From Patescibacteria group bacterium (lineage in GTDB: Bacteria > Patescibacteriota > UBA1384 > UBA12157 > JAENIV01), in the NCBI GenBank assembly GCA_049515915.1, contig JBEKTP010000001.1:72855-132712 (forward strand): a DNA stretch of 59,858 nucleotides, written 5' to 3'. The notes under the pieces were generated by a model that was not told the DNA's origin, made no database searches, and was given only the letters and a program-made list of their open reading frames with translations. Positions within the stretch are counted from its first letter, which is position 1. Every line of letters begins with the position of its first letter. The position numbers and the translations under genes are program-made. Shown piece by piece: positions 648 to 24,799 of this stretch.

Positions 648-1232
648 TCACCGACTTGGCCGTGTCCCGCATTCGCGGAATTCGGGCCCCGCCGACTCGG
701 CTGGCTTGACGGGCGGTTTTTTCAACCTGTTAATGTTACCATTAACAGCCGAAACACCACGGGGCAAGCGGTTTTCCCGCACCCTCGCGGTTACTGTCTT
801 TTTTCCATCTATTCTCATTCGTTGCTGGTATTTACGAAATTTTTGTATGCCTCTTGGAGTAAGATGTTCTTTCTTGGCAACGGCCTCTACCGCCTGACAA
901 AAAATTCTAAAACTTTTTGCCTTTTTGGCCTGTAAAGGATATTTTCGAAAAAAAGGTATTAGTTTTTCTTGAAAATCTTGGAGTTTCTGGATTTTGTATT
1001 TGACATGGGGATGCCAACCATATCTTTCGTAATTCAATTCGTATATATTGCCACATCCTAATGTCTCTCGAATTCTTTCCAGAATTTGTCTGTCATCAGC
1101 CCTCAACTCGATTTCAAACTCTAATTTGATTTCTCGACGATTCTTTAAAGTTTTATGCTGACCGATACTGATGGCAAAACATCCTTCTCCATCGATAAAC
1201 CCCGCAACATAATGGGGATTAAGTTTAGACAA
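648..1232 (-). CDS. intron-encoded single-motif LAGLIDADG homing endonuclease
   Basis: YVAGFIDGEGCF motif, FEIELRADD...LGCGNI pattern; ORF track start 1403 and ATG 1259 lie in ribozyme domains, so TTG 1232 after AAGGAG is the likelier start; stop TGA 650-648 is in the 16S exon. Confidence 0.9.
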   Translation of the reverse strand: MSKLNPHYVAGFIDGEGCFAISIGQHKTLKNRREIKLEFEIELRADDRQILERIRETLGCGNIYELNYERYGWHPHVKYKIQKLQDFQEKLIPFFRKYPLQAKKAKSFRIFCQAVEAVAKKEHLTPRGIQKFRKYQQRMRIDGKKTVTARVRENRLPRGVSAVNGNINRLKKPPVKPAESAGPEFRECGTRPSR

Positions 1233-1615
1233 TTTTGCTCCTTCCTCCGACTGAAACATCGGAGTACTATGAGCGCTGCAGACTTCTTGTATTACATTAA
1301 TAGGCTTGCGCTTTACTTTACCTCGAGTATAAATAACCCTCGAGGATAATACAAGATCTCCCTTGGTCATAAAAATACCATTCTTCACTATCTCGACACC
1401 CATATATTATTGAATCATTAAGTCTGCAAATCGCTTCTCCATGCACACGGAGGATCGCGCGGATTCAATAACCTTCGAGTATTCAAGCTAGCAAATGCTA
1501 CTTTCACCCTTCGCCTAGAAAGTCACCTTTCATTAGACTGTGATTTCGCTTTTTCCGGTTTGCAGGCCGGAAAGTTGGTTTCTCAACCAACTGGCATTTT
1601 TACGGCAAGGCGCCA
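718..1615 (-). mobile_element. group II (IIC-like) intron in 16S between E. coli C1397 and A1398
   Basis: exons join as GUACAC|ACCGCCCGUC; D1 closing helix CGUAAAAAUGCCA/UGGUAUUUUUAUG; EBS1 loop GUGUGCA (1448-1442) pairs with exon end UGUACAC; IIC-type D3 motif AAGUCUGCAGCGCUCAUAGUAC; D5 with CGC triad (756-791); D6 hairpin (720-754). Confidence 0.9.
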
Positions 1616-2032
1616 GTGTACAAGACTCGAGAACGTATTCACCGTGGTGTGCTGACCCACGATTACTAGCGATTCCAACTTCATGAGGGCGAGTTGCAGC
1701 CCTCAATCTGTACTGGGGTGGTTTTTGAGAGATTAGCTTAACGTTACCGTTTTGCGACTCTTTATATCCACCATTGTAGCACGTGTGTTGCCCAGGACGT
1801 AAGAGCCACGCTGATTTGACGTCATCTGCACCTTCCTCCGTATAAACTACGGCAGTCTCCTGTGAAAATTAACACAGAATACAGGTTGCGCTCGTTGGAC
1901 CACTTAAGGCCACACTCTACAGCACGAGCTGACGACAACCGTGCAGCACCTGTCTTAGGGTTCCGTTTCCGGCACGAGTCTATTTCTAGTCTCTTCCCTA
2001 GATGTCAAGTCCTGGTAAGGTTCTTCGCTTAT

Positions 2033-2227: not shown

Positions 2228-2874
2228 ACGCTTTCGCATCTGAGTGTCAGGATAACCTAGCAAGCTGCCTTCGCCATTGGTGTTCTTCCCGATATCAACG
2301 CATTTCACTGCTACACCGGGAATTCCGCTTGCCCCTGCTATCCTCAAAGATTTCCAGTATCGAACCCCGAACCGCAGTTGAGCTGCGGGCTTTGAAGTTC
2401 AACTTAGAAATCCACCTGCATGCGCTTTACGCCCAATAAATCCGGATAACGCTCGAGCCCTACGTATTACCGCTGCTGCTGGCACGTAGTTAGCAGGCTC
2501 TTATTCTTAGGGTACCGTCACAATCGTCCCCTAAAAAAGAAGTTTACACCCCGAGGGGCGTCTTCCTTCACGCGGCGTCGCTGCGTCAGACTGTCGTCCA
2601 TTGCGCAATATTCCCAACTGCTGCCACCCGTAGGTGTATGGGCCGTGTCTCAGTCCCATTGTGGCTGGTCAACCTCTCAGTCCAGCTACCCGTCGAAGCC
2701 TTGGTAGGCCATTACCCCACCAACAAGCTGATAGGAACAAGGCCGATCTTATCCCGCCGGAGCTTTACTCTTGCGAGACTATGGGACATTAACCCACCTT
2801 TCGGCGGGGTATTTCCCGGGATAAGGCACGTTCCTTGCTATTACTCACCCGTTCGCCACGCTCTTACGAGCGTA

Positions 2875-2932
<58 letters not shown>

Positions 2933-3038
2933 AAAATTGTTATGAGAATCTAGATTGCTCTAGATAAACATCTGACTTAGATTTCTTTTATTTCTAATCT
3001 TAAAGAAAGGAGTTTTTTTACTTCTATTACCATAGAAG

Positions 3039-3065
3039 TTCTTGCAACCGCAAAAAAACTGAAAG
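3039..3065 (-). other. 5' arm of 16S precursor processing stem
   Basis: CUUUCAGUUUUUUUGCGGUUGCAAGAA complementary to 464-490. Confidence 0.8.
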
Positions 3066-3259
3066 TATTTCGTTTTTTTACGATTTATTGGTTCGCACAT
3101 TCGATATTACGTTGTTAAAGTTCATGCCATCAAAGACAATCAAAAAAATTCCTGACAGTCGGAATTTTTGTGACTATCTTCGATACATTTTTAACGTTAT
3201 ATTGTTAAAAACTTTTCTCCATCAGCAAAACTCCTTGGAACTTATCACAGCTCAAGCTC

Positions 3260-3288
3260 ATCATAAAATATTTCGTGATTGATGTCAA
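3260..3288 (-). promoter_or_regulatory. sigma70-type rRNA promoter
   Basis: TTGACA-17 nt-TATGAT upstream of the 16S leader. Confidence 0.75.
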
Positions 3289-3310
3289 GAGCCTATATGT
3301 TAGTGGTTTA

Positions 3311-3327
3311 AGAATCAGGAATGAGGA
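3311..3327 (-). repeat. cassette 1 terminal helix, 3' arm
   Basis: UCCUCAUUCCUGAUUCU pairs fully (2 G-U) with 4430-4446; homologous to 22628-22646. Confidence 0.8.
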
Positions 3328-3720
3328 GGGGACGCGGGTGCGTCCCCTCGGTATGGAACGAGCAAAAGACTTGCTCGAGGATTTTATGTGCGGGCGCGTG
3401 TAGGTGCGCGCCCGCACTTTGCCTGTAACGAAATCTTCAGTTTTCACACCGGTTCGGTGTGTGTCAGCCGGAAGAGCATTCTCCTTCCACAGCAGTTTGT
3501 GCGACAACGAAAACGAATATGAGCCGAAGCTCGGGACTTGTGGTCGGATGGGCGCCGCTGCGGGTGAGACGTTGGCGCCCATCCTAGTTGTTGGCCACGC
3601 TATTTGGGGTTTACAAGGAACAGAACAACGTAGCGTGGGTCCATCTTGTACAGAGGCCCGCTTTCTCCTCTCTCTCACGGCCTATCGATAGGCCGAAGCC
3701 TAAGTTTCGTCAGAATAGCA
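3326..3720 (-). ncRNA. putative structured ncRNA downstream of tRNA-like gene 1
   Basis: series of strong hairpins: 3326-3349 (10 bp), 3360-3376, 3388-3417 (11 bp), 3445-3461, 3521-3532 and 3689-3702 (both cUUCGg on minus strand), 3546-3584 (11 bp), 3595-3638; no credible ORF. Confidence 0.65.
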
Positions 3721-3721
3721 A

Positions 3722-3808
3722 TGGCCCCGGCGGGATTCGAACCCGCGATATCCGTCCCGGGTCACTGCTGTGGCCCAGTAGCCTTAGGCCAAACTAGGCG
3801 ACGGGGCC
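3722..3808 (-). tRNA. tRNA-like gene 1 (87 nt), anticodon undeterminable, no encoded CCA
   Basis: acceptor GGCCCCG/CGGGGCC+A, D arm GCCU/AGGC, T arm GCGGG-UUCGAAU-CCCGC; anticodon arm CUGGG/CCCGG encloses 12 nt (CCACAGCAGUGA); 10-nt variable region. Confidence 0.75.
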
Positions 3809-4003
3809 CGTCATGTCATACAGTAGTGCCAGCGTGATTGAAAGATCCGGATCCACTTCCCTTACCGATTCACACCACGCCAGCCCTGGATCCATCTCAC
3901 CCGGCACCAGCAATCCAGCACGGTTAGATGGAAACATCTCTGCTTCCCTCGCCGCTTTGCCTGGCTGATAGTGCTTATGCACGACTGGCAGAAACCCCGC
4001 CAT
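3794..4003 (-). CDS. small hypothetical protein (69 aa); stop codon lies inside tRNA-like gene 1
   Basis: AAGGAGG 5 nt before ATG; last 15 nt overlap the tRNA 5' end. Confidence 0.6.
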   Translation of the reverse strand: MAGFLPVVHKHYQPGKAAREAEMFPSNRAGLLVPGEMDPGLAWCESVREVDPDLSITLALLYDMTGPVA

Positions 4004-4029
4004 CGTCGCCTCCTTTCAACCCTTTCTCT

Positions 4030-4113
4030 TTATCCCACCCAGTTGAAAGTCAGCCCCACCAGAATGATGGTAGCCATCAGAATTCCAAGCAGAACATCCT
4101 CCAGCTTCTTCAT
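4030..4113 (-). CDS. 27-aa hydrophobic peptide MKKLEDVLLGILMATIILVGLTFNWVG
   Basis: GGAGG RBS; ATGA overlap with upstream ORF; below ORF-track cutoff. Confidence 0.55.
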   Translation of the reverse strand: MKKLEDVLLGILMATIILVGLTFNWVG

Positions 4114-4205
4114 CGCCGTTTCCTCCGACTCCGGTAGATGACAATGGCTGGAGACGCCATAAAGAGGAACCATGCAACTGCCAACAGCCAGTGATACCAT
4201 TTCAT
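4110..4205 (-). CDS. 31-aa membrane peptide with basic tail MKWYHWLLAVAWFLFMASPAIVIYRSRRKRR
   Basis: AAGGAGG 5 nt before ATG; below ORF-track cutoff. Confidence 0.6.
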   Translation of the reverse strand: MKWYHWLLAVAWFLFMASPAIVIYRSRRKRR

Positions 4206-4217
4206 CGCCGCCTCCTT

Positions 4218-4436
4218 TCAGTCATCGACTCCGAAGAATGCAGCTCCAACTTCGCGGCGCCAGGCAACGGTGTGCCAATAAGCTCGATCGGCATCGGCTT
4301 CATCTTCAGAACGACTTGCCAGATCTGCTCTAATTGCATGATGTAATGCGATGTCTCTGGCCGTCACCCCGTACTCACGAAACCGGCTTTGGACATGATC
4401 CAGTTCGTTCATTATCAGATCCCCTTTCTTCCTCAT
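4218..4436 (-). CDS. small hypothetical protein (72 aa; alternative start 4412)
   Basis: ORF track; GGAGG before ATG 4436 and AAGGGG before ATG 4412. Confidence 0.6.
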   Translation of the reverse strand: MRKKGDLIMNELDHVQSRFREYGVTARDIALHHAIRADLASRSEDEADADRAYWHTVAWRREVGAAFFGVDD

Positions 4437-4446
4437 TCCTAATTCC
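4430..4446 (-). repeat. cassette 1 terminal helix, 5' arm
   Basis: GGAAUUAGGAAUGAGGA; homologous to 23152-23170. Confidence 0.8.
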
Positions 4447-4585
4447 CTCCTGCGCCCTTACTGAAAAACCTATTACAAAGTGTACTTTCAGTGCGGGCTA
4501 TGGAGAGCAAGCCAAATTTTTAAGTTGCAATATTTTCTTTTGTATTTTGTATTTTTGTATCGAATTTTTTGTAGTTTGTAGCAGT

Positions 4586-5206
4586 TTAACTTTTTATCAC
4601 TTGATCGACAATTCCATATTTCTTAGCCTCCGCGGCGGTCATATAGAAATCGCGGTCGGTGTCTTTTTCGATTTTGGCGATTGTCTGACCGGTATGTTTG
4701 GCTAAAACTTCATTAATCGCTTTTTTGATCCGTAAAATCTCGCGCGTTTGGATTTCGACGTCGGTCGCTTGGCCTTCGGCCCCGCCCATCACTTGATGAA
4801 TCATTACCCGCGCGTTCGGTAAAGCGTATCTTTTCCCCTTTGTGCCGGCCGCGAGCAATACCGCGGCGGCCGAAGCCGCTTGACCGATACAAATCGTTTC
4901 CACATCCGGTTTGATGTACTGAATCGTATCGTAGATCGCCATGCCCGCCGAAACCACCCCACCAGGTGAGTTGATATAAACGGAAATATCTTTTTTCGGG
5001 TCTTCCGATTCCAAAAACAAAAGTTGGGCCATAATCAAATTGGCGACATGGTCGTCAATCGGCCCACCCAAAAAGATAATCCGGTCAACCAAAAGCCGAC
5101 TATATATATCATAGGCGCGTTCACCAAACTGGGTTTTTTCCACCACCATCGGCACCAGATATTGATTGATAATTTCCTTTTTATTAAGAGAACTTTTTTC
5201 GTTCAT
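4586..5206 (-). CDS. clpP: ATP-dependent Clp protease proteolytic subunit
   Basis: [30 protein letters not shown] motifs. Confidence 0.98.
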
Positions 5207-20612: not shown

Positions 20613-22571
20613 TTATCTAAGCCTCAATTTTTTAAGCTGAATAATCTCGTCACGCAAAATCGCCGCCCGCTCGAATTCTAAATTTTGAGCCGCTTTTTTC
20701 ATTTCGATTTCTTTAAAACGGATCGCCGCCGGCAAATCTTCGATTTTTTCTAAGTCAATAAATTCTGGGGTGACTTCGGGCCTGAGTTCATGATCGATAA
20801 TACTCTCGATCGTCTTTTGAATAGTTTTCGGTGTAATATGATGTTTTACATTAAATTTTATTTGTTTAGCCCGCCGGCGATTAGTTTCGTCAATCGCTCG
20901 TTTCATTGAGCCAGTCATATTATCGGCATACAAAATGACCATACCGCGAACATTTCGCGCTGCCCGGCCGATAGTTTGAACCAACGATACATCCGAGCGT
21001 AAAAATCCCTCTTTATCCGCGTCTAAAATTGCGACTAAGGAAACCTCCGGCAAATCCAAGCCTTCGCGCAATAAATTCACCCCGACCAAAACATCAAATT
21101 CACCTTTGCGCAAATTTTCCAAAATTCCCACTCGATCCAAAGTGTCAACTTCGCTATGCAGATATTCGGCACGCACGCCAATTTCTTTAAAATGGTCTGA
21201 AAGTTCTTCGGCCATTCTTTTTGTTAAAGTAGTAACTAAAATTCTCTCCTCCGCTTTGGCGCGTTTTTTGATTTCTTTGGTTAAATCATCGACTTGTCCT
21301 TCGATTGATCTTACTTCGACTTCTGGATCAACCAAACCGGTCGGTCGGATAATCTGCTCGACAATTTGTTTCGAATGTTCCCTCTCAAAGCTTGCTGGCG
21401 TCGCCGTGGTATAAATAACTTGATTTATTTTGGTCTGAAATTCCGGAAATTTTAACGGCCGGTTATCTCGAGCCGATGGTAAACGAAAACCATGTTCAAC
21501 CAGCGAATCTTTTCGCGATTTATCGCCCTCAAACATTCCCCGAAGCTGAGGAATAGTCACGTGTGATTCATCAATAATCATCAAAAAATCTTCGGGGAAA
21601 TAATCAATCAACGTATAAGGCGCTTGACCTTCTTTTCGGCCGGTCAAGTACCGCGAATAATTTTCAATTCCGGCGCAATAACCGATTTCACGAAGTAGCT
21701 CCAAGTCGTAACGCGTCCGTCGTCGCAGTCTCTCCGCCTCCACAAATTTCCCCCTTTTTTCAAAATAAGAAACCCGCTCTTTTAGTTCTTTTTCAATGGC
21801 CATAATCGATTTTTGCATCGTCGGTGATGTAACCACGAAATGCTTGGCGGGATAAATCATCAGTTTTTTTTCATCATAAAGTTTTCTCATCGTGACAGCC
21901 TCAAAAACCGTGATTTTAGTTAGCCAATCTTTCTCAATTTCGATCCGAATAATAACTTCTCGATCGGCCGGCATAATTTCAATTGTTCCGCCATGAACTC
22001 TAAATTTCCCGCGAGATAAAATTTCAGAGCGTTCAAAATACATTTCAACCAAACGATTAATAATATCCTCGCGCGCAATTTCCTCGCCCACCGCTAAATT
22101 TAAATGACTTTCGCGATAAACTTCCGGACTACCCAAACCATAGATACACGAAACCGAAGCGACGACAATCACATCGCGCCGCGCCAGTAACGCCTGGGTA
22201 GCGGCATGGCGCAACCGATCAATTTCTTCATTAATTTCAACATCTTTTTCAATATAGATATCAGTGTTCGGCATATAAGCTTCGGGTTGATAATAATCGT
22301 AGTAGGACACAAAATATTCGACGGCACTTTCCGGAAAAAAAGTGCGAAACTCAGAACAAAGCTGGGCCGCCAAAGTTTTATTGTGAGCGATAACTAAAGT
22401 CGGCTTTTGAACTTTTTCAATCACATTAGCAATGCTAAAAGTTTTACCCGAACCAGTCACACCCAATAAAGTCTGGTGTTTAAAACCTTTTTTGATACCA
22501 TCAACCAATTTCGATATCGCCGCCGGCTGATCCCCGGCCGGCTTGAATTTTGAGGAAATCTTAAAATCCAT
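20613..22571 (-). CDS. uvrB: excinuclease ABC subunit B
   Basis: GVTGSGKT, YYDYYQPEAY, DESH, QTIGRAARN, C-terminal UVR domain. Confidence 0.98.
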   Translation of the reverse strand: MDFKISSKFKPAGDQPAAISKLVDGIKKGFKHQTLLGVTGSGKTFSIANVIEKVQKPTLVIAHNKTLAAQLCSEFRTFFPESAVEYFVSYYDYYQPEAYMPNTDIYIEKDVEINEEIDRLRHAATQALLARRDVIVVASVSCIYGLGSPEVYRESHLNLAVGEEIAREDIINRLVEMYFERSEILSRGKFRVHGGTIEIMPADREVIIRIEIEKDWLTKITVFEAVTMRKLYDEKKLMIYPAKHFVVTSPTMQKSIMAIEKELKERVSYFEKRGKFVEAERLRRRTRYDLELLREIGYCAGIENYSRYLTGRKEGQAPYTLIDYFPEDFLMIIDESHVTIPQLRGMFEGDKSRKDSLVEHGFRLPSARDNRPLKFPEFQTKINQVIYTTATPASFEREHSKQIVEQIIRPTGLVDPEVEVRSIEGQVDDLTKEIKKRAKAEERILVTTLTKRMAEELSDHFKEIGVRAEYLHSEVDTLDRVGILENLRKGEFDVLVGVNLLREGLDLPEVSLVAILDADKEGFLRSDVSLVQTIGRAARNVRGMVILYADNMTGSMKRAIDETNRRRAKQIKFNVKHHITPKTIQKTIESIIDHELRPEVTPEFIDLEKIEDLPAAIRFKEIEMKKAAQNLEFERAAILRDEIIQLKKLRLR

Positions 22572-22627
22572 ATGGCGATATCATACCATATTTTTACAAA
22601 AAAATCTATTATTGATGAAATTAGTTC

Positions 22628-22646
22628 TAAGAATTAGAGATGGGGA
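22628..22646 (-). repeat. cassette 2 terminal helix, 3' arm
   Basis: UCCCCAUCUCUAAUUCUUA pairs with 23152-23170 (18/19). Confidence 0.8.
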
Positions 22647-22910
22647 GCGAGCCTCGCCGGCCGGCGGGGCTCGCGATAAGAGGATAAGAGAGAGGTGGGC
22701 GCCGGACCACAGCCAGTCTGACGCCCTCAAGATGGCACAAGTTGGGGTGGTGGGGGGGTGTCGACTTGAGCCTCCCTGATTTTAACCTCTCAAAGTTAGA
22801 GGGTGCGAGGGATATTTGGGTAGGGAGAACCCATTTATCCACAATGCCCTGGATCTTGGCTATTCACTCATTGACGCCGCTTCCCTTTTCGGACACTCGC
22901 ACCCAAATCA

Positions 22911-22986
22911 TGATAGGAACTTTCGGATTCGAACCGAAGAGCAACCATTAGCTACCGCTTGCTCTTCCATCCTAAGCTAAGTCCCT
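22911..22986 (-). tRNA. tRNA-like gene 2, degenerate anticodon arm, ends AUCA
   Basis: acceptor AGGGACU/AGUUCCU, D arm GCUU-AGGAUGGAA-GAGC, T arm UUCGG-UUCGAAU-CCGAA; anticodon loop UAGCUAA lacks U33; weak anticodon stem with G.G mismatch. Confidence 0.7.
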
Positions 22987-23035
22987 ACCCGACATAAGAG
23001 GAGAGGACCTTGCGGTCGAAACATCAGAGAGGCTT

Positions 23036-23158
23036 TTACCACAGGACGTAGCCCAAGTTACGCGTGACAAAAGGCCTGTCTGATTTAGTGTTTCCCATCA
23101 ACACGGACAAGGGCCTTGGGGCTAACCCGATCAGATAGCTCTCCTCACTTTTCCTCAT
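23036..23158 (-). CDS. possible 40-aa ORF within cassette 2 (MRKSEESYLIGLAPRP...)
   Basis: ATG lies inside the terminal-helix motif as in cassette 1, but no SD and it overlaps a structured domain. Confidence 0.2.
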   Translation of the reverse strand: MRKSEESYLIGLAPRPLSVLMGNTKSDRPFVTRNLGYVLW

Positions 23159-23170
23159 CTCTAATTCTCA
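23152..23170 (-). repeat. cassette 2 terminal helix, 5' arm
   Basis: UGAGAAUUAGAGAUGAGGA. Confidence 0.8.
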
Positions 23171-23193
23171 ACGTACGATATTGTAATATCACC

Positions 23194-23221
23194 ATTATAG
23201 TCTCAATTGGCGACGTGTCAA
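23194..23221 (-). promoter_or_regulatory. consensus promoter driving cassette 2
   Basis: TTGACA-16-TATAAT; GATATT-AC-AATATC palindrome just downstream; no substantial CDS before uvrB. Confidence 0.8.
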
Positions 23222-23231
23222 TTACTCATCC

Positions 23232-23274
23232 TTAAACAAAATCCCCTTCGTCTATGGTCAGGGATTTTGTTTAA
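23232..23274 (-). terminator. terminator of the rpsB...proS operon
   Basis: TTAAACAAAATCCC / GGGATTTTGTTTAA 14-bp inverted repeat. Confidence 0.7.
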
Positions 23275-23283
23275 ATTTATAAA

Positions 23284-23520
23284 TTATTCGGTATCCACCG
23301 GGGGTTCGTCATCTCCCGGTTTATTTTCACCAGTCTCATCATCACTTTCGCCATCGGTTATTTCGGCTTCGGGATCTTTAACCGCCGGTGTTTCAAGACT
23401 TCGAGCCATCGGCGCTTCCTCGCCTTCGCCGGTTTTTTCCACCGCGCCGCCGGACGCATCTTGGGTGCCATCGTCATCATCGTCACTAACCAAATTCGCG
23501 TTTGGGTCTTGGTAATCCAT
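23284..23520 (-). CDS. small acidic, probably disordered protein (78 aa)
   Basis: AAGGAGG 5 nt before ATG 23520; very D/E-rich. Confidence 0.75.
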   Translation of the reverse strand: MDYQDPNANLVSDDDDDGTQDASGGAVEKTGEGEEAPMARSLETPAVKDPEAEITDGESDDETGENKPGDDEPPVDTE

Positions 23521-23581
23521 TTTAACCTCCTTGTTCACTATTTTGTTCTTACCAATTAAATTCACTCCCAAGCTTTCGAGA

Positions 23582-24799
23582 TCATCGTAACAATTCGGCT
23601 ATCACTTCGTCAACAGCCAAAATCTTAGTTTCTTTTTCGGTCCTTTTTTTGACTTCAATTTTCTCGCCGGTTTTTTCACTAACAACTAATCGATATGGAA
23701 TACCTAAAAGATCGGCGTCGGCAAATTTAACACCGGCGGCGGTTTCGCGATCATCATAAAGAACATCAAGACCACTTTGAACCATTTTTTCATAAACTTT
23801 ATCGGCCTTTCCGTCAGTTAAATCAATCAAAACAGTTTTAAACGGCGCAATCGATTCCGGCCAAATAATGCCGTAGTCATCGTGCGAGACTTCCACGATG
23901 GCCGCCATCAGCCGCGGGATGCCAATGCCATAGCAACCCATAATAAAATTCTTCATCTTGCCGTCGGAGTCAGTAAAAGCGGCGTTCATTTTTTTGGAAT
24001 ACAAATCATCGAGCATAAAAATGTGCGCAATCTCAATTGCTTTAAGTGATTTGACTGCCCCGCCGCAGGATGGACATTTGTCCAAATCGGAAGTCAGCTC
24101 GACATTGACAGCGTAATCGCAGGCGCCGCAGATATAAATTGTATTTTCACCGGTTTCAGAAAGGAGCATAAATTCATTCGATTTCTTGCCGCCAATCGAG
24201 CCTGAATGAGAGCTGACAAGATGAACGTCCCGCCCCATTCGTTTGAATATTTTTCGATAAGCAATAATGACTTTTTCATAATAAGCTTCAAACTCTTTTT
24301 GATCAGCGTGAAAACTATAGGCGTCCTTCATCAGAAATTCTTTGGTTCGTAAAAGCCCGCCGGTAAAACGCTGTTCGTTGCGAAACTTCGTCTGAATTTG
24401 ATAGAGCATTTGCGGCAATTCCTTAAAGGAAGAAATGCGGTCCTGAACCAAATCGACAATGACTTCTTCGTGCGTCGAACCTAACGCTAATTCTTTATCG
24501 TGGCGGTCCTTAAGTTTAAGTAAAGGTGGATCCATCGTATTCCACCGGCCTGATTCTTCCCAAAGCTCTTTTGGCTGCAAAGCCGGCAGGAATATTTCTT
24601 GGCCGCCGATGGCATCCATTTCCTCCCGAATAATTTGTGAAATCTTAGTAATAACTCGCCAGCCGAGCGGCAATAACGAATAAACTCCGCTCATTTCCTG
24701 ATCGATATAACCGCCACGCAATAACAAAGCTGAGGAGATATTATCGGCCTCCTTGGGTGTTTCACGTTGAGTTTTAATTAAAGATTTAGAATACCTCAT
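23582..24799 (-). CDS. proS: proline--tRNA ligase, short form without INS editing domain
   Basis: THEE, FRNEQRF.GGLLR.KEF.MKDAYSF, MGCYGIG, GVKFADADLLGIP. Confidence 0.95.
   Translation of the reverse strand: MRYSKSLIKTQRETPKEADNISSALLLRGGYIDQEMSGVYSLLPLGWRVITKISQIIREEMDAIGGQEIFLPALQPKELWEESGRWNTMDPPLLKLKDRHDKELALGSTHEEVIVDLVQDRISSFKELPQMLYQIQTKFRNEQRFTGGLLRTKEFLMKDAYSFHADQKEFEAYYEKVIIAYRKIFKRMGRDVHLVSSHSGSIGGKKSNEFMLLSETGENTIYICGACDYAVNVELTSDLDKCPSCGGAVKSLKAIEIAHIFMLDDLYSKKMNAAFTDSDGKMKNFIMGCYGIGIPRLMAAIVEVSHDDYGIIWPESIAPFKTVLIDLTDGKADKVYEKMVQSGLDVLYDDRETAAGVKFADADLLGIPYRLVVSEKTGEKIEVKKRTEKETKILAVDEVIAELLR

Follow-up and report, generated by a model that had tools for sequence, protein, structure and literature searches.

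Pairing between the 3′ and 5′ ends of a message is known from the hok mRNA, where it takes place between the fbi and tac elements. Among intergenic repeats, heptamers of the sequence TAACTGA, whose function is unknown, have been described in Beggiatoaceae, Cyanobacteria and Bacteroidetes (PMC4679880). The locus analysed here bears some likeness to both. It belongs to a 59,858-nt stretch of DNA (the window) from an uncultured bacterium that recurs in peat and wetland metagenomes, and its central element is a structured stretch of 395 nt (positions 3326–3720). The window has a G+C content of 43% and carries nearly all its genes on the minus strand, on which clpP (5206→4586) is followed by a 1.1-kb island of ~56% G+C (4445→3312), an AT-rich spacer with the ribosomal promoter, the leader and the 16S rRNA gene (2938→1571). 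The structured stretch makes up the promoter-proximal third of this island. It is a real, conserved and unclassified string of eight strong stem-loops. We tentatively regard it as the tail of a unit, E1, bounded by inverted repeats and coding for tiny membrane peptides, rather than as the partner of the tRNA look-alike beside it.

Eight stem-loops upstream of the 16S promoter

A sequence-only reading of the window had placed here a large, ornate non-coding RNA tied to the adjacent tRNA-like gene. The dense structure that it described exceeds chance on every count. Folded on the minus strand, the 395 nt reach a minimum free energy (MFE) of -162.6 kcal/mol, compared with -123.9 ± 5.0 kcal/mol for dinucleotide-shuffled sequences (z -7.7, 0 of 100 shuffles as good), and the plus strand reaches -165.1 against -140.0 ± 6.2 (z -4.0). 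Perfect hairpins of at least 7 bp number six where 0.35 are expected (maximum of three in 1000 shuffles), and three hairpins of 10–11 bp stand against an expectation of 0.003 for at least 10 bp. Each of the eight helices proposed folds alone as described, with a mean pair probability of 0.95–1.00 in the minus-strand ensemble (3720→3305), and the palindromic stems fold alike on the two strands. Scanned in 200-nt windows, the signal lies mostly in the three last hairpins, H6–H8 (z -6.0), the 5′ two thirds giving z -1.7 to -2.1, and a 295-nt “closed domain” of the single-sequence fold, taken alone, gives z -3.0. Each of the eight hairpins is present only once in the window plus 16 kb of flanks, unlike repetitive extragenic palindromes (REP) or bacterial interspersed mosaic elements (BIME), and a promoter scan found no promoter belonging to the array itself.

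Read in the direction of the minus strand, the array begins with H1 (3679–3702), made of the palindrome hairpin GGCCUA-UCGA-UAGGCC (GGCCTATCGATAGGCC, 3679–3694; 3678–3695 as a perfect 7-bp stem) and an alternative hairpin, UAGGC-UUCG-GCCUA (3689–3702). Because their sequences overlap, these two folds are mutually exclusive, as had been proposed, and the palindrome is strongly favoured in the ensemble (0.95). H2 (3595–3638) has an 8-bp perfect outer stem, CCACGCUA...UAGCGUGG, with an internal extension. It is followed by H3 (3546–3584), with an 11-bp perfect stem, GGAUGGGCGCC/GGCGCCCAUCC (inverted repeat I5), and a 17-nt loop, and by H4 (3521–3532), a tetraloop hairpin with a 4-bp stem, GAGC-UUCG-GCUC. 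H5 (3445–3461) is a 7-bp perfect hairpin, CACACC(G)...(C)GGUGUG; H6 (3388–3417) an 11-bp perfect stem, GUGCGGGCGCG/CGCGCCCGCAC (inverted repeat I4); H7 (3359–3377) a 7-bp stem, CGAGCAA/UUGCUCG, followed on the plus strand by AGGATTTTAT; and H8 (3326–3349) a 10-bp perfect stem, GAGGGGACGC/GCGUCCCCUC (inverted repeat I7), which abuts the 3′ arm of the unit. UUCG loops are an RNA signature, and the motif CUUCGG occurs, as first noticed from the letters, twice on the minus strand (CCGAAG of the plus strand at 3524–3529 and 3693–3698) and never on the plus strand.

Most of the interpretation turns on a close relative, hereafter the sister genome (L189 and L191), a 542-kb contig reached through protein cluster look-ups of the neighbouring genes. 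It differs from the window at 11.6% of four-fold degenerate sites, and it aligns with window positions 3727→1617 at 96% identity, the array standing upstream of the same rRNA promoter. Within the stretch, the eight stems show no difference in 126 nt and the rest differs at 53 of 269 nt, indels included (Fisher p=4e-10). The stems are unchanged in H1 (0/12), in the outer part of H2 (0/16), in H3 together with its loop, in H4 (0/8), in the six outer pairs of H5, in H6 (0/22), in H7 (0/14) and in H8 (0/24). Changes are confined to the interior of H2 (two, one of them C-G to U-G), the loops of H5 (AAC remodelled to AGCC), H6 (one change) and H7 (a 2-nt deletion), and the linkers, all of which are altered. 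The sister array itself folds at z -6.7. The one-sided changes that preserve pairing are exchanges between G-U and Watson-Crick pairs valid on the minus strand only, as at position 3630 in H2 and at the fifth position of the E1 arm and the tenth of the E2 arm; they include four of the five changes in the helices of E2, the second unit described below. Contigs from four sequencing runs at 80% likeness were all identical, and those of P0026 and P0027 either matched the window exactly or were too short.

Judged from this comparison, the stems are under strong purifying selection. A single large ornate fold, as the sequence-only reading had it, finds no such backing: the long-range helices of the single-sequence fold (3712–3705/3433–3426, 3670–3665/3476–3471 and 3515–3509/3483–3477) are disrupted in the sister genome, and loops and junctions vary around invariant stems, the reverse of what tertiary-structured RNAs usually show, namely conserved loops and junctions. 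A two-sequence consensus retains local hairpins only, plus one new 7-bp helix (3491–3485/3358–3352) with a single compensatory pair, which is too little to build on. Since the stems are frozen and the linkers, loops and long-range helices vary, the selected objects are the eight individual hairpins, and the stretch looks like an array of largely independent hairpins rather than one tertiary fold.

The array corresponds to no described RNA among those searched. Rfam 15, which covers RNase P RNA, transfer-messenger RNA (tmRNA), 6S, group I and II introns, ROOL, GOLLD, OLE, HEARO, raiA, YrlA, riboswitches and small ribozymes, returned for the window only the tRNA (39 bits) and 16S matches and no family for the stretch, even at E<=10. 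At that threshold, nothing relevant appeared in window 2900–4100 and 22400–23700, L189 11500–12450 or L191 11500–12100. The P4 helix of RNase P RNA is formed by the conserved strands GAGGAAAGUCC and ACAGAA..CGGCUUA, and GAGGAGAAAGCGGGCC (3670–3655) resembles CR-I by eye; there is neither a 3′ partner motif nor a model match, and we consider the resemblance a coincidence. A tmRNA, one-piece or permuted, was rejected (no ARAGORN tmRNA call, no match to the Rfam tmRNA model), and so were the ssoA CS-6 motif (TAGCGT), because its likeness in H2 sits in the stem and not in the loop, and an integron attC site, the R′/R″ motifs of which were not seen. Searching phage and plasmid collections with blastn using positions 3300–4450 gave no match.

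Neither does the stretch appear to code for protein. For the ORF (open reading frame) 3404–3691 on the plus strand (95 aa) no homologue was found. The one at 3205–3678 on the minus strand (157 aa) had no match among 1.84 billion representatives other than its own entry and P0009, the translation of a 60-nt tandem repeat, and a set of 5.8 billion sequences held no homologue of the long ORFs beyond the ORF itself and this repeat artefact. Pfam, PHROG and NCBIfam gave no match to either. In the sister genome seven indels (+2, +3, -4, -3, -1, -1 and -2 nt), the majority of a length not divisible by three, interrupt both frames. Given these disruptions and the lack of protein homologues, we consider the stretch non-coding. 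Shuffle-level folding and a protein homologue, the two results that the sequence-only reading had named as speaking against itself, both failed to appear.

Units E1 and E2, their arms and their cargo

The island that ends with the array is framed exactly at its edges by inverted repeat I1, two 16-nt arms of 94% complementarity on the minus strand: the 5′ arm GAATTAGGAATGAGGA (4445–4430), just upstream of the Shine-Dalgarno (SD) sequence of the first small ORF, and the 3′ arm UCCUCAUUCCUGAUUC (3327–3312). We call the whole unit E1. The arm motif occurs four times in the window, compared with 0.3 expected and 0 of 100 shuffles, and the E1 arms pair in both the MFE and the centroid structure of the whole unit. 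In the sister genome they form a 21-nt inverted repeat in which a U-G has become C-G, and they also close the predicted sister fold, MFE and centroid alike; they have thus been kept, and lengthened, although the cargo beside the 5′ arm is entirely different. There the interval from clpP to the array measures 355 nt instead of 860 nt and holds none of the four small ORFs of the window but a single 33-aa hydrophobic ORF behind a good SD sequence. All three known unit ends, those of E1, of E2 and of the related locus L008, have a GC hairpin directly against the 3′ arm. In the same three, similarity runs past the arms into the downstream promoter region, which argues against these arms being transposon ends. 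The 23 nt between the E1 3′ arm and the -35 box are ~50% different in the sister genome. On the other side, an imperfect hairpin with 20-nt arms (4447–4505, minus strand) directly precedes the 5′ arm, and a hairpin is found at this place also in E2 (GATATTACAATATC) and in L008 (CCCACC...GGTGGG).

Behind the 5′ arm, the window carries four small minus-strand ORFs. The first (4218–4436), 72 aa as listed, has homologues that begin with MNELD (window 4412); only two of them were found, both diverged (80% and 64% identity), and the ORF is absent from L189. A 31-aa hydrophobic peptide, MKWYHWLLAVAWFLFMASPAIVIYRSRRKRR (4110–4205), follows behind the junction TGAAAGGAGGCGGCGATG, the stop/SD/start element that forms direct repeat D1, and a similar MQWYHW ORF exists in L008. 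Next come a 27-aa hydrophobic peptide, MKKLEDVLLGILMATIILVGLTFNWVG (4030–4113), with the SD-like repeat D2, and a 69-aa ORF (3794–4003), the C-terminus of which leaves its family after DPD (~window 3822), ~14 nt before the tRNA-like gene. Hydrophobic ORFs of 27–33 aa with strong SD junctions are found in every version of the unit (window, L189 and L008). Searches of the small ORFs against Pfam, PHROGs and NCBIfam gave nothing usable and matched no known toxin family; viral contigs held no relatives, and a metagenome scan returned only two contigs already known.

Some of these features recur elsewhere. In related organisms (L005–L009 and L179–L182), small ORFs joined by strong SD junctions stand in tandem in GC-rich islands, and proteins of the pattern DP.LG.AW..S....DPD..IALA..R.IR recur among them as paralogues; none of the proteins of these islands received a family assignment. 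Two arm-bounded cassettes stand in tandem after clpP in L005–L008, and the islands of L179 and L182 finish with a classical terminator made of a hairpin and a U-tract. Some strains of the same species carry upstream of uvrD an IS30-like ORF (HTH_38 and rve domains; L186 8491–9498, L187 2965–3972) that the window's contig lacks (compare L188), and the genes beyond it also vary between strains.

Between the ORFs and the array lies tRNA-like gene 1 (3722–3808, minus strand; detected by ARAGORN and the Rfam tRNA model). Its acceptor, D and T arms are canonical, its “anticodon” loop, GGCCACAG, measures 8 nt, and its variable arm is long. ARAGORN reports it as tRNA-??? with the four-base anticodon ccac, and its Rfam score of 39 bits compares with 71–72 bits for tRNA-Ile and tRNA-Ala, genuine tRNAs of this genome. 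We rejected it as a true tRNA, which would have a 7-nt anticodon loop with U33 and a 5-bp anticodon stem. A 10-nt pairing of its “anticodon” region with 3496–3487 was also discarded: chance alone would produce roughly one match of this kind in the island, and in L189 the target has been deleted or altered. The functional tie between the array and this tRNA mimic that had been proposed is not supported. The sister genome retains of the gene only the last six bases, GGGCCA, where shared sequence restarts within the 3′ acceptor strand (window 3727), and has no tRNA in the interval; since it keeps the array without the tRNA-like gene, and without the four ORFs, the array is independent of the mimic. 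Relatives with homologues of the 72-aa and 69-aa ORFs (L005–L009, L179–L182) have no tRNA there either, and L009, the sequence of which reaches the 16S gene, has the rRNA promoter and leader and lacks the array.

The second unit, E2 (22631–23167, minus strand), is an arm-closed structured RNA candidate located between uvrB and a small acidic ORF downstream of proS. Its arms lie at 23152–23167 and 22631–22646, its tRNA-like module 2 at 22912–22987 and a perfect sigma-70 promoter, TTGACA-16-TATAAT (12/12), at 23194–23221. It folds at z -6.3, its MFE structure nearly equals the centroid, with the arms as closing helix, and no Rfam family matches it. A 203-nt segment (23123–22921) is missing from the sister genome; its place corresponds to the loop of a small hairpin there, and it brings a better complement to the 3′ acceptor strand. 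Outside this indel, four of the five changes at paired positions keep the pair, and ~12 more fall on unpaired positions. The bodies of E1 and E2 have no sequence in common except the arms and a T-loop 11-mer, GGTTCGAATCC. They are the only two copies in ~76 kb, and the sister genome has both at orthologous sites. In each, the tRNA-like module belongs to a segment that the sister genome lacks, and shared sequence restarts at the 3′ acceptor strand (window 3722–3808 and 22912–22987; L189 11885; L191 11678–11683). Searches of viral contigs for the tRNA 3′ end or the hairpin patterns gave only unrelated tRNAs and isolated GC palindromes. One IMG/VR contig (3300033153_008155; L183 8700–8868) shares its T-arm and 3′ acceptor end without any difference with tRNA-like gene 1, has ~160 nt between its two acceptor strands and no ARAGORN call, and may represent an interrupted tRNA.

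The arm 16-mer consists of two units of the heptamer GAAT[T/G]AG. Among the at least 167 loci listed for exact matches to the 16-mer in genome and viral collections, 138 have tandem heptamer arrays, and among those listed 63 arrays are followed by a complementary array within 20–2500 nt, mostly 20–300 nt. Such pairs form intergenic hairpin elements with long stems, present in phage contigs as well as in Clostridiales-like, Bacteroidales and other genomes (for example L134 967–1132 and 2207–2358, L145, L166 10103–10319 and 10977–11336, L018, L140 and ~60 more among L012–L178). The heptamer arrays of other genomes stand in tandem in untranslated regions near start codons. No Rfam family matches the paired elements, and a literature search with the sequence as words turned up no paper. 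Some single matches to the 16-mer are coding coincidences, and the genome matches listed come from unrelated genomes, with no orthologue of the unit among them.

Downstream of the E1 3′ arm, and directly below the stretch as the sequence-only reading had stated, follows the near-consensus 16S promoter TTGACA-17-TATGAT (3288–3260, minus strand, 11/12), conserved in the sister genome. It leads into a boxA-containing leader of 320 nt (2939–3259) with boxA-like sites near 3211 and 3120, six perfect AT-rich hairpins, folding at z -5.2 and 4.7% divergence from L189. The 16S rRNA gene (1571–2938; Rfam RF00177, 1334 bits) matches over 1368 nt of the 1533-position model. Downstream of that match, ~900 nt (window 717–1617), including an ORF for a LAGLIDADG endonuclease (648–1403), are absent from the sister genome; a match to group II intron domains D1–D4 (1238–1320) is present in both. 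On the plus strand, a promoter-like site, TTATCA-16-TAAAAT (3242–3269, 9/12), stands back to back with the rRNA promoter, and H7 followed by AGGATTTTAT is the sole terminator-like site of the region (scan of 2800–4700). Both sites are retained in the sister genome and overlap other conserved features. As far as such motifs can tell, they could yield an antisense RNA of ~110 nt (~3277–3386) over H7, H8 and the 3′ arm.

Possible roles of the array

The explanation that we find best, and nevertheless hold only tentatively, is that the array is a cis-acting untranslated 3′ region of a small-peptide mRNA (E1, 4445→3312), which it would stabilise, fold back and insulate. This transcript would start with the purine-rich 16-nt arm beside the ribosome-binding region and end with H8 and the pyrimidine-rich arm ~20 nt before the rRNA -35 box. 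Its hairpins would block 3′ exonucleases in cis, and the same region would serve as a zone of termination, pausing or insulation that keeps upstream transcription off the rRNA promoter. By pairing back on the 5′ arm in a helix of 18–21 bp, the 3′ arm would close the transcript and mask its translation start region, in the way of mRNAs for small toxic peptides that are inhibited by folding back, the helix being also a potential RNase III site. In the lineage of the window only, the tRNA-like module between the ORFs and the array would add a cleavage point for RNase P/Z that separates them. The presence of a hydrophobic 27–33-aa ORF in every version of the unit fits a fold-back control of small peptides. 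Transcription of the minus strand, each of the processing steps and the function itself are what we infer from these features.

Several observations weigh against this explanation. No RNA run holding the sequence was found, so that transcript support is nil; no consensus promoter was found upstream of the E1 5′ arm; and the terminator scan of 2800–4700 showed no canonical U-tract after any array hairpin on the minus strand. Folding does not choose the strand either, the two MFEs being nearly equal and the G-U pairs numbering 13 on the plus and 12 on the minus strand. E2 has no convincing ORF and yet carries the same arms as E1, which therefore cannot be solely a translational device; one of its arm mismatches is A-C on the minus strand, an exception beside its G-C to G-U change, which keeps minus-strand pairing. 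In the related island L182 the complementarity between 5′ and 3′ ends is not above that of shuffles. The stems are fully invariant without even G-U intermediates, ~4 of which would be expected if these were neutral, and this invariance exceeds what a generic role as stable hairpins needs, in a comparison that rests on one diverged relative. Our confidence is low because of the missing transcript, the lack of a clear E1 promoter and of a U-tract, the ORF-less E2 and the excessive invariance of the stems.

Alternatively, the array might be a free-standing, stable RNA acting in trans, with hairpins that bind proteins, which we consider rather unlikely. It would be released from its precursor by RNase P/Z at the tRNA-like module in this lineage, or by RNase III at the arms, and it corresponds to the sequence-only reading stripped of its tRNA link. 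The array is the constant part of E1, taking up 60% of the sister unit next to an ORF-side cargo that is swapped between genomes, and the ORF-less E2, with the same arms, its 12/12 promoter and its pairing-preserving changes, would suit such an RNA; so would the sequence-level invariance of eight different stems, which fits specific recognition. However, the junctions, loops and long-range helices are not conserved, neither genome yields an Rfam family at E<=10, the array has no promoter of its own, and homologues were found only in two closely related genomes, L009 having none despite its related ORFs upstream of the 16S gene. A more far-reaching version, which we think improbable, would see in E1 and E2 an undescribed class of large RNAs, closed by heptamer-derived arms around a hairpin-rich constant core and a slot for exchangeable cargo behind the 5′ arm, with tRNA-like punctuation. 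Small-peptide genes or structured segments would be the cargo, ending in this lineage in a tRNA-like module that a 3′ acceptor strand already in place would complete. If true, these units would constitute an RNA-defined cassette platform punctuated by tRNA-like modules.

It is likewise improbable that selection acts on DNA, the units being inverted-repeat cassettes (like miniature inverted-repeat transposable elements, MITEs, or invertible, or exchanged by recombination) and the palindromes being sites for proteins or recombination. The stems are indeed perfect palindromes that fold equally on both strands, and their very sequence, beyond pairing, is invariant. Moreover, the genomes have swapped the cargo that lies between the 5′ arm and the array, the two tRNA-like modules are indels ending at similar points, and the arm heptamer flanks short hairpin elements on both sides in many unrelated genomes and in phage contigs. 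A MITE or a transposon with terminal inverted repeats (TIRs) was nonetheless rejected: the inverted repeats are present, but target-site duplications are missing, sequence homology does not stop at the arms in E1, E2 and L008, and the two copies in ~76 kb are both orthologously placed in the sister genome. In more than 20 contigs of different samples the orientation is always the same and no variant appears, although contigs drop rare variants. Eight different palindromes would presumably need many binding proteins in a small genome, the differences in arms and helices are mostly compatible with G-U pairing on the sense strand, and the UUCG loops point to RNA.

We give still less credit to an organisation resembling a type I toxin-antitoxin system, in which the hydrophobic peptides would be toxins, their mRNA silenced by folding back, and the ~110-nt plus-strand RNA (~3277–3386) the antisense partner. 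Hydrophobic ORFs of 27–33 aa accompany every version of the unit, and the plus-strand promoter-like site and the sole terminator-like site are kept in the sister genome. The closure of the 5′ and 3′ ends recalls the fbi/tac pairing of the hok mRNA: as in hok/sok, the 3′ end is predicted to pair with the 5′ translation-activation region, and this pairing is conserved in two genomes. Against this, the promoter on the plus strand is a weak one, with 9/12, and since it overlaps the rRNA -10 box its conservation is not independent evidence; the peptides match no known toxin family; and 300 nt of further hairpins, together with E2, would be left unaccounted for.

Very unlikely in our opinion is that the array forms an upstream part of the rRNA leader, read through together with the tRNA-like gene from a far promoter, like tandem P1/P2 promoters with a leading tRNA. 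Hairpin density does continue into the AT-rich leader, with its six perfect hairpins, and the array is immediately adjacent to the 16S unit on the same strand. The pattern of divergence is nevertheless very different, which makes this reading unlikely: 4.7% in the leader proper compared with ~20% in the array linkers and ~50% in the spacer between the 3′ arm and the -35 box; in addition, the sister genome has no tRNA there, and L009 has promoter and leader without the array. Finally, a coding gene or pseudogene in the ORF 3205–3678(-) or 3404–3691(+) is as good as refuted, since the open frames of 157 and 95 codons, the longer of which a gene caller once called (P0008), come without homologue, Pfam match or SD sequence and are broken by the seven indels, and the changes track stems, not codons.

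Whatever their role, the frozen stems among free linkers give an unusually clean signal that marks the eight hairpins as functional units. Should the array prove to be the untranslated tail of a small-peptide mRNA, a genome-reduced, uncultured peat bacterium would control a small-peptide operon, and insulate it from the adjoining promoter, its only visible one for 16S, by RNA structure alone. Two wider leads would, if confirmed, extend far beyond this bacterium: the arms around an ORF-less second RNA together with the heptamer arrays of other genomes, and the lineage-specific tRNA-like indels that end at the 3′ strand of the acceptor.

Comparison with described systems

E1 and E2 share partial traits with several described systems. 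Like ROOL and GOLLD (and also OLE, HEARO and raiA), large bacterial non-coding RNAs that often neighbour tRNA genes, the array extends over hundreds of nucleotides with many helices and has, in this genome, a tRNA-like neighbour. It departs from them in giving no covariance-model match at E<=10, in conserving stems and neither junctions nor loops, in not keeping its long-range helices and in persisting in a sister genome without the tRNA-like gene. Tandem intrinsic terminators and 3′ stabiliser hairpins offer a different likeness, GC-rich perfect stems at the end of a unit and before a strong promoter, but the array has eight hairpins, no canonical U-tract on the coding strand and an invariance beyond the needs of stability.

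Correia elements of Neisseria, enterobacterial ERIC elements and the intervening sequences or processing stems of rRNA are inverted repeats that fold once transcribed and are then cleaved by RNase III. E1 and E2 resemble them in having complementary ends, which would form a helix of ~20 bp round a cargo, and in being intergenic near promoters, and rRNA intervening sequences can carry small ORFs, as E1 does. In contrast to them, E1 and E2 are present in two copies in ~76 kb, have no target duplication, enclose 340–1100 nt of structured cargo and lie outside the rRNA gene, their cleavage being hypothetical. The arm 16-mer, built of heptamer units, recalls the TAACTGA repeats, with the differences that the heptamer is another one, that the arms here are made of two degenerate units and that inverted pairs around hairpin cargo are not described for those repeats (PMC4679880).

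As for hok/sok, E1 differs in its length of 0.67–1.13 kb, its 400-nt array, its several ORFs and a sibling, E2, without ORF, and its peptides are unrelated in sequence to Hok, Fst, Ldr and TxpA. What it has in common with that system is a hydrophobic small ORF in a structured mRNA, an extreme 3′ end complementary to sequence beside the translation start and, possibly, a convergent antisense RNA.

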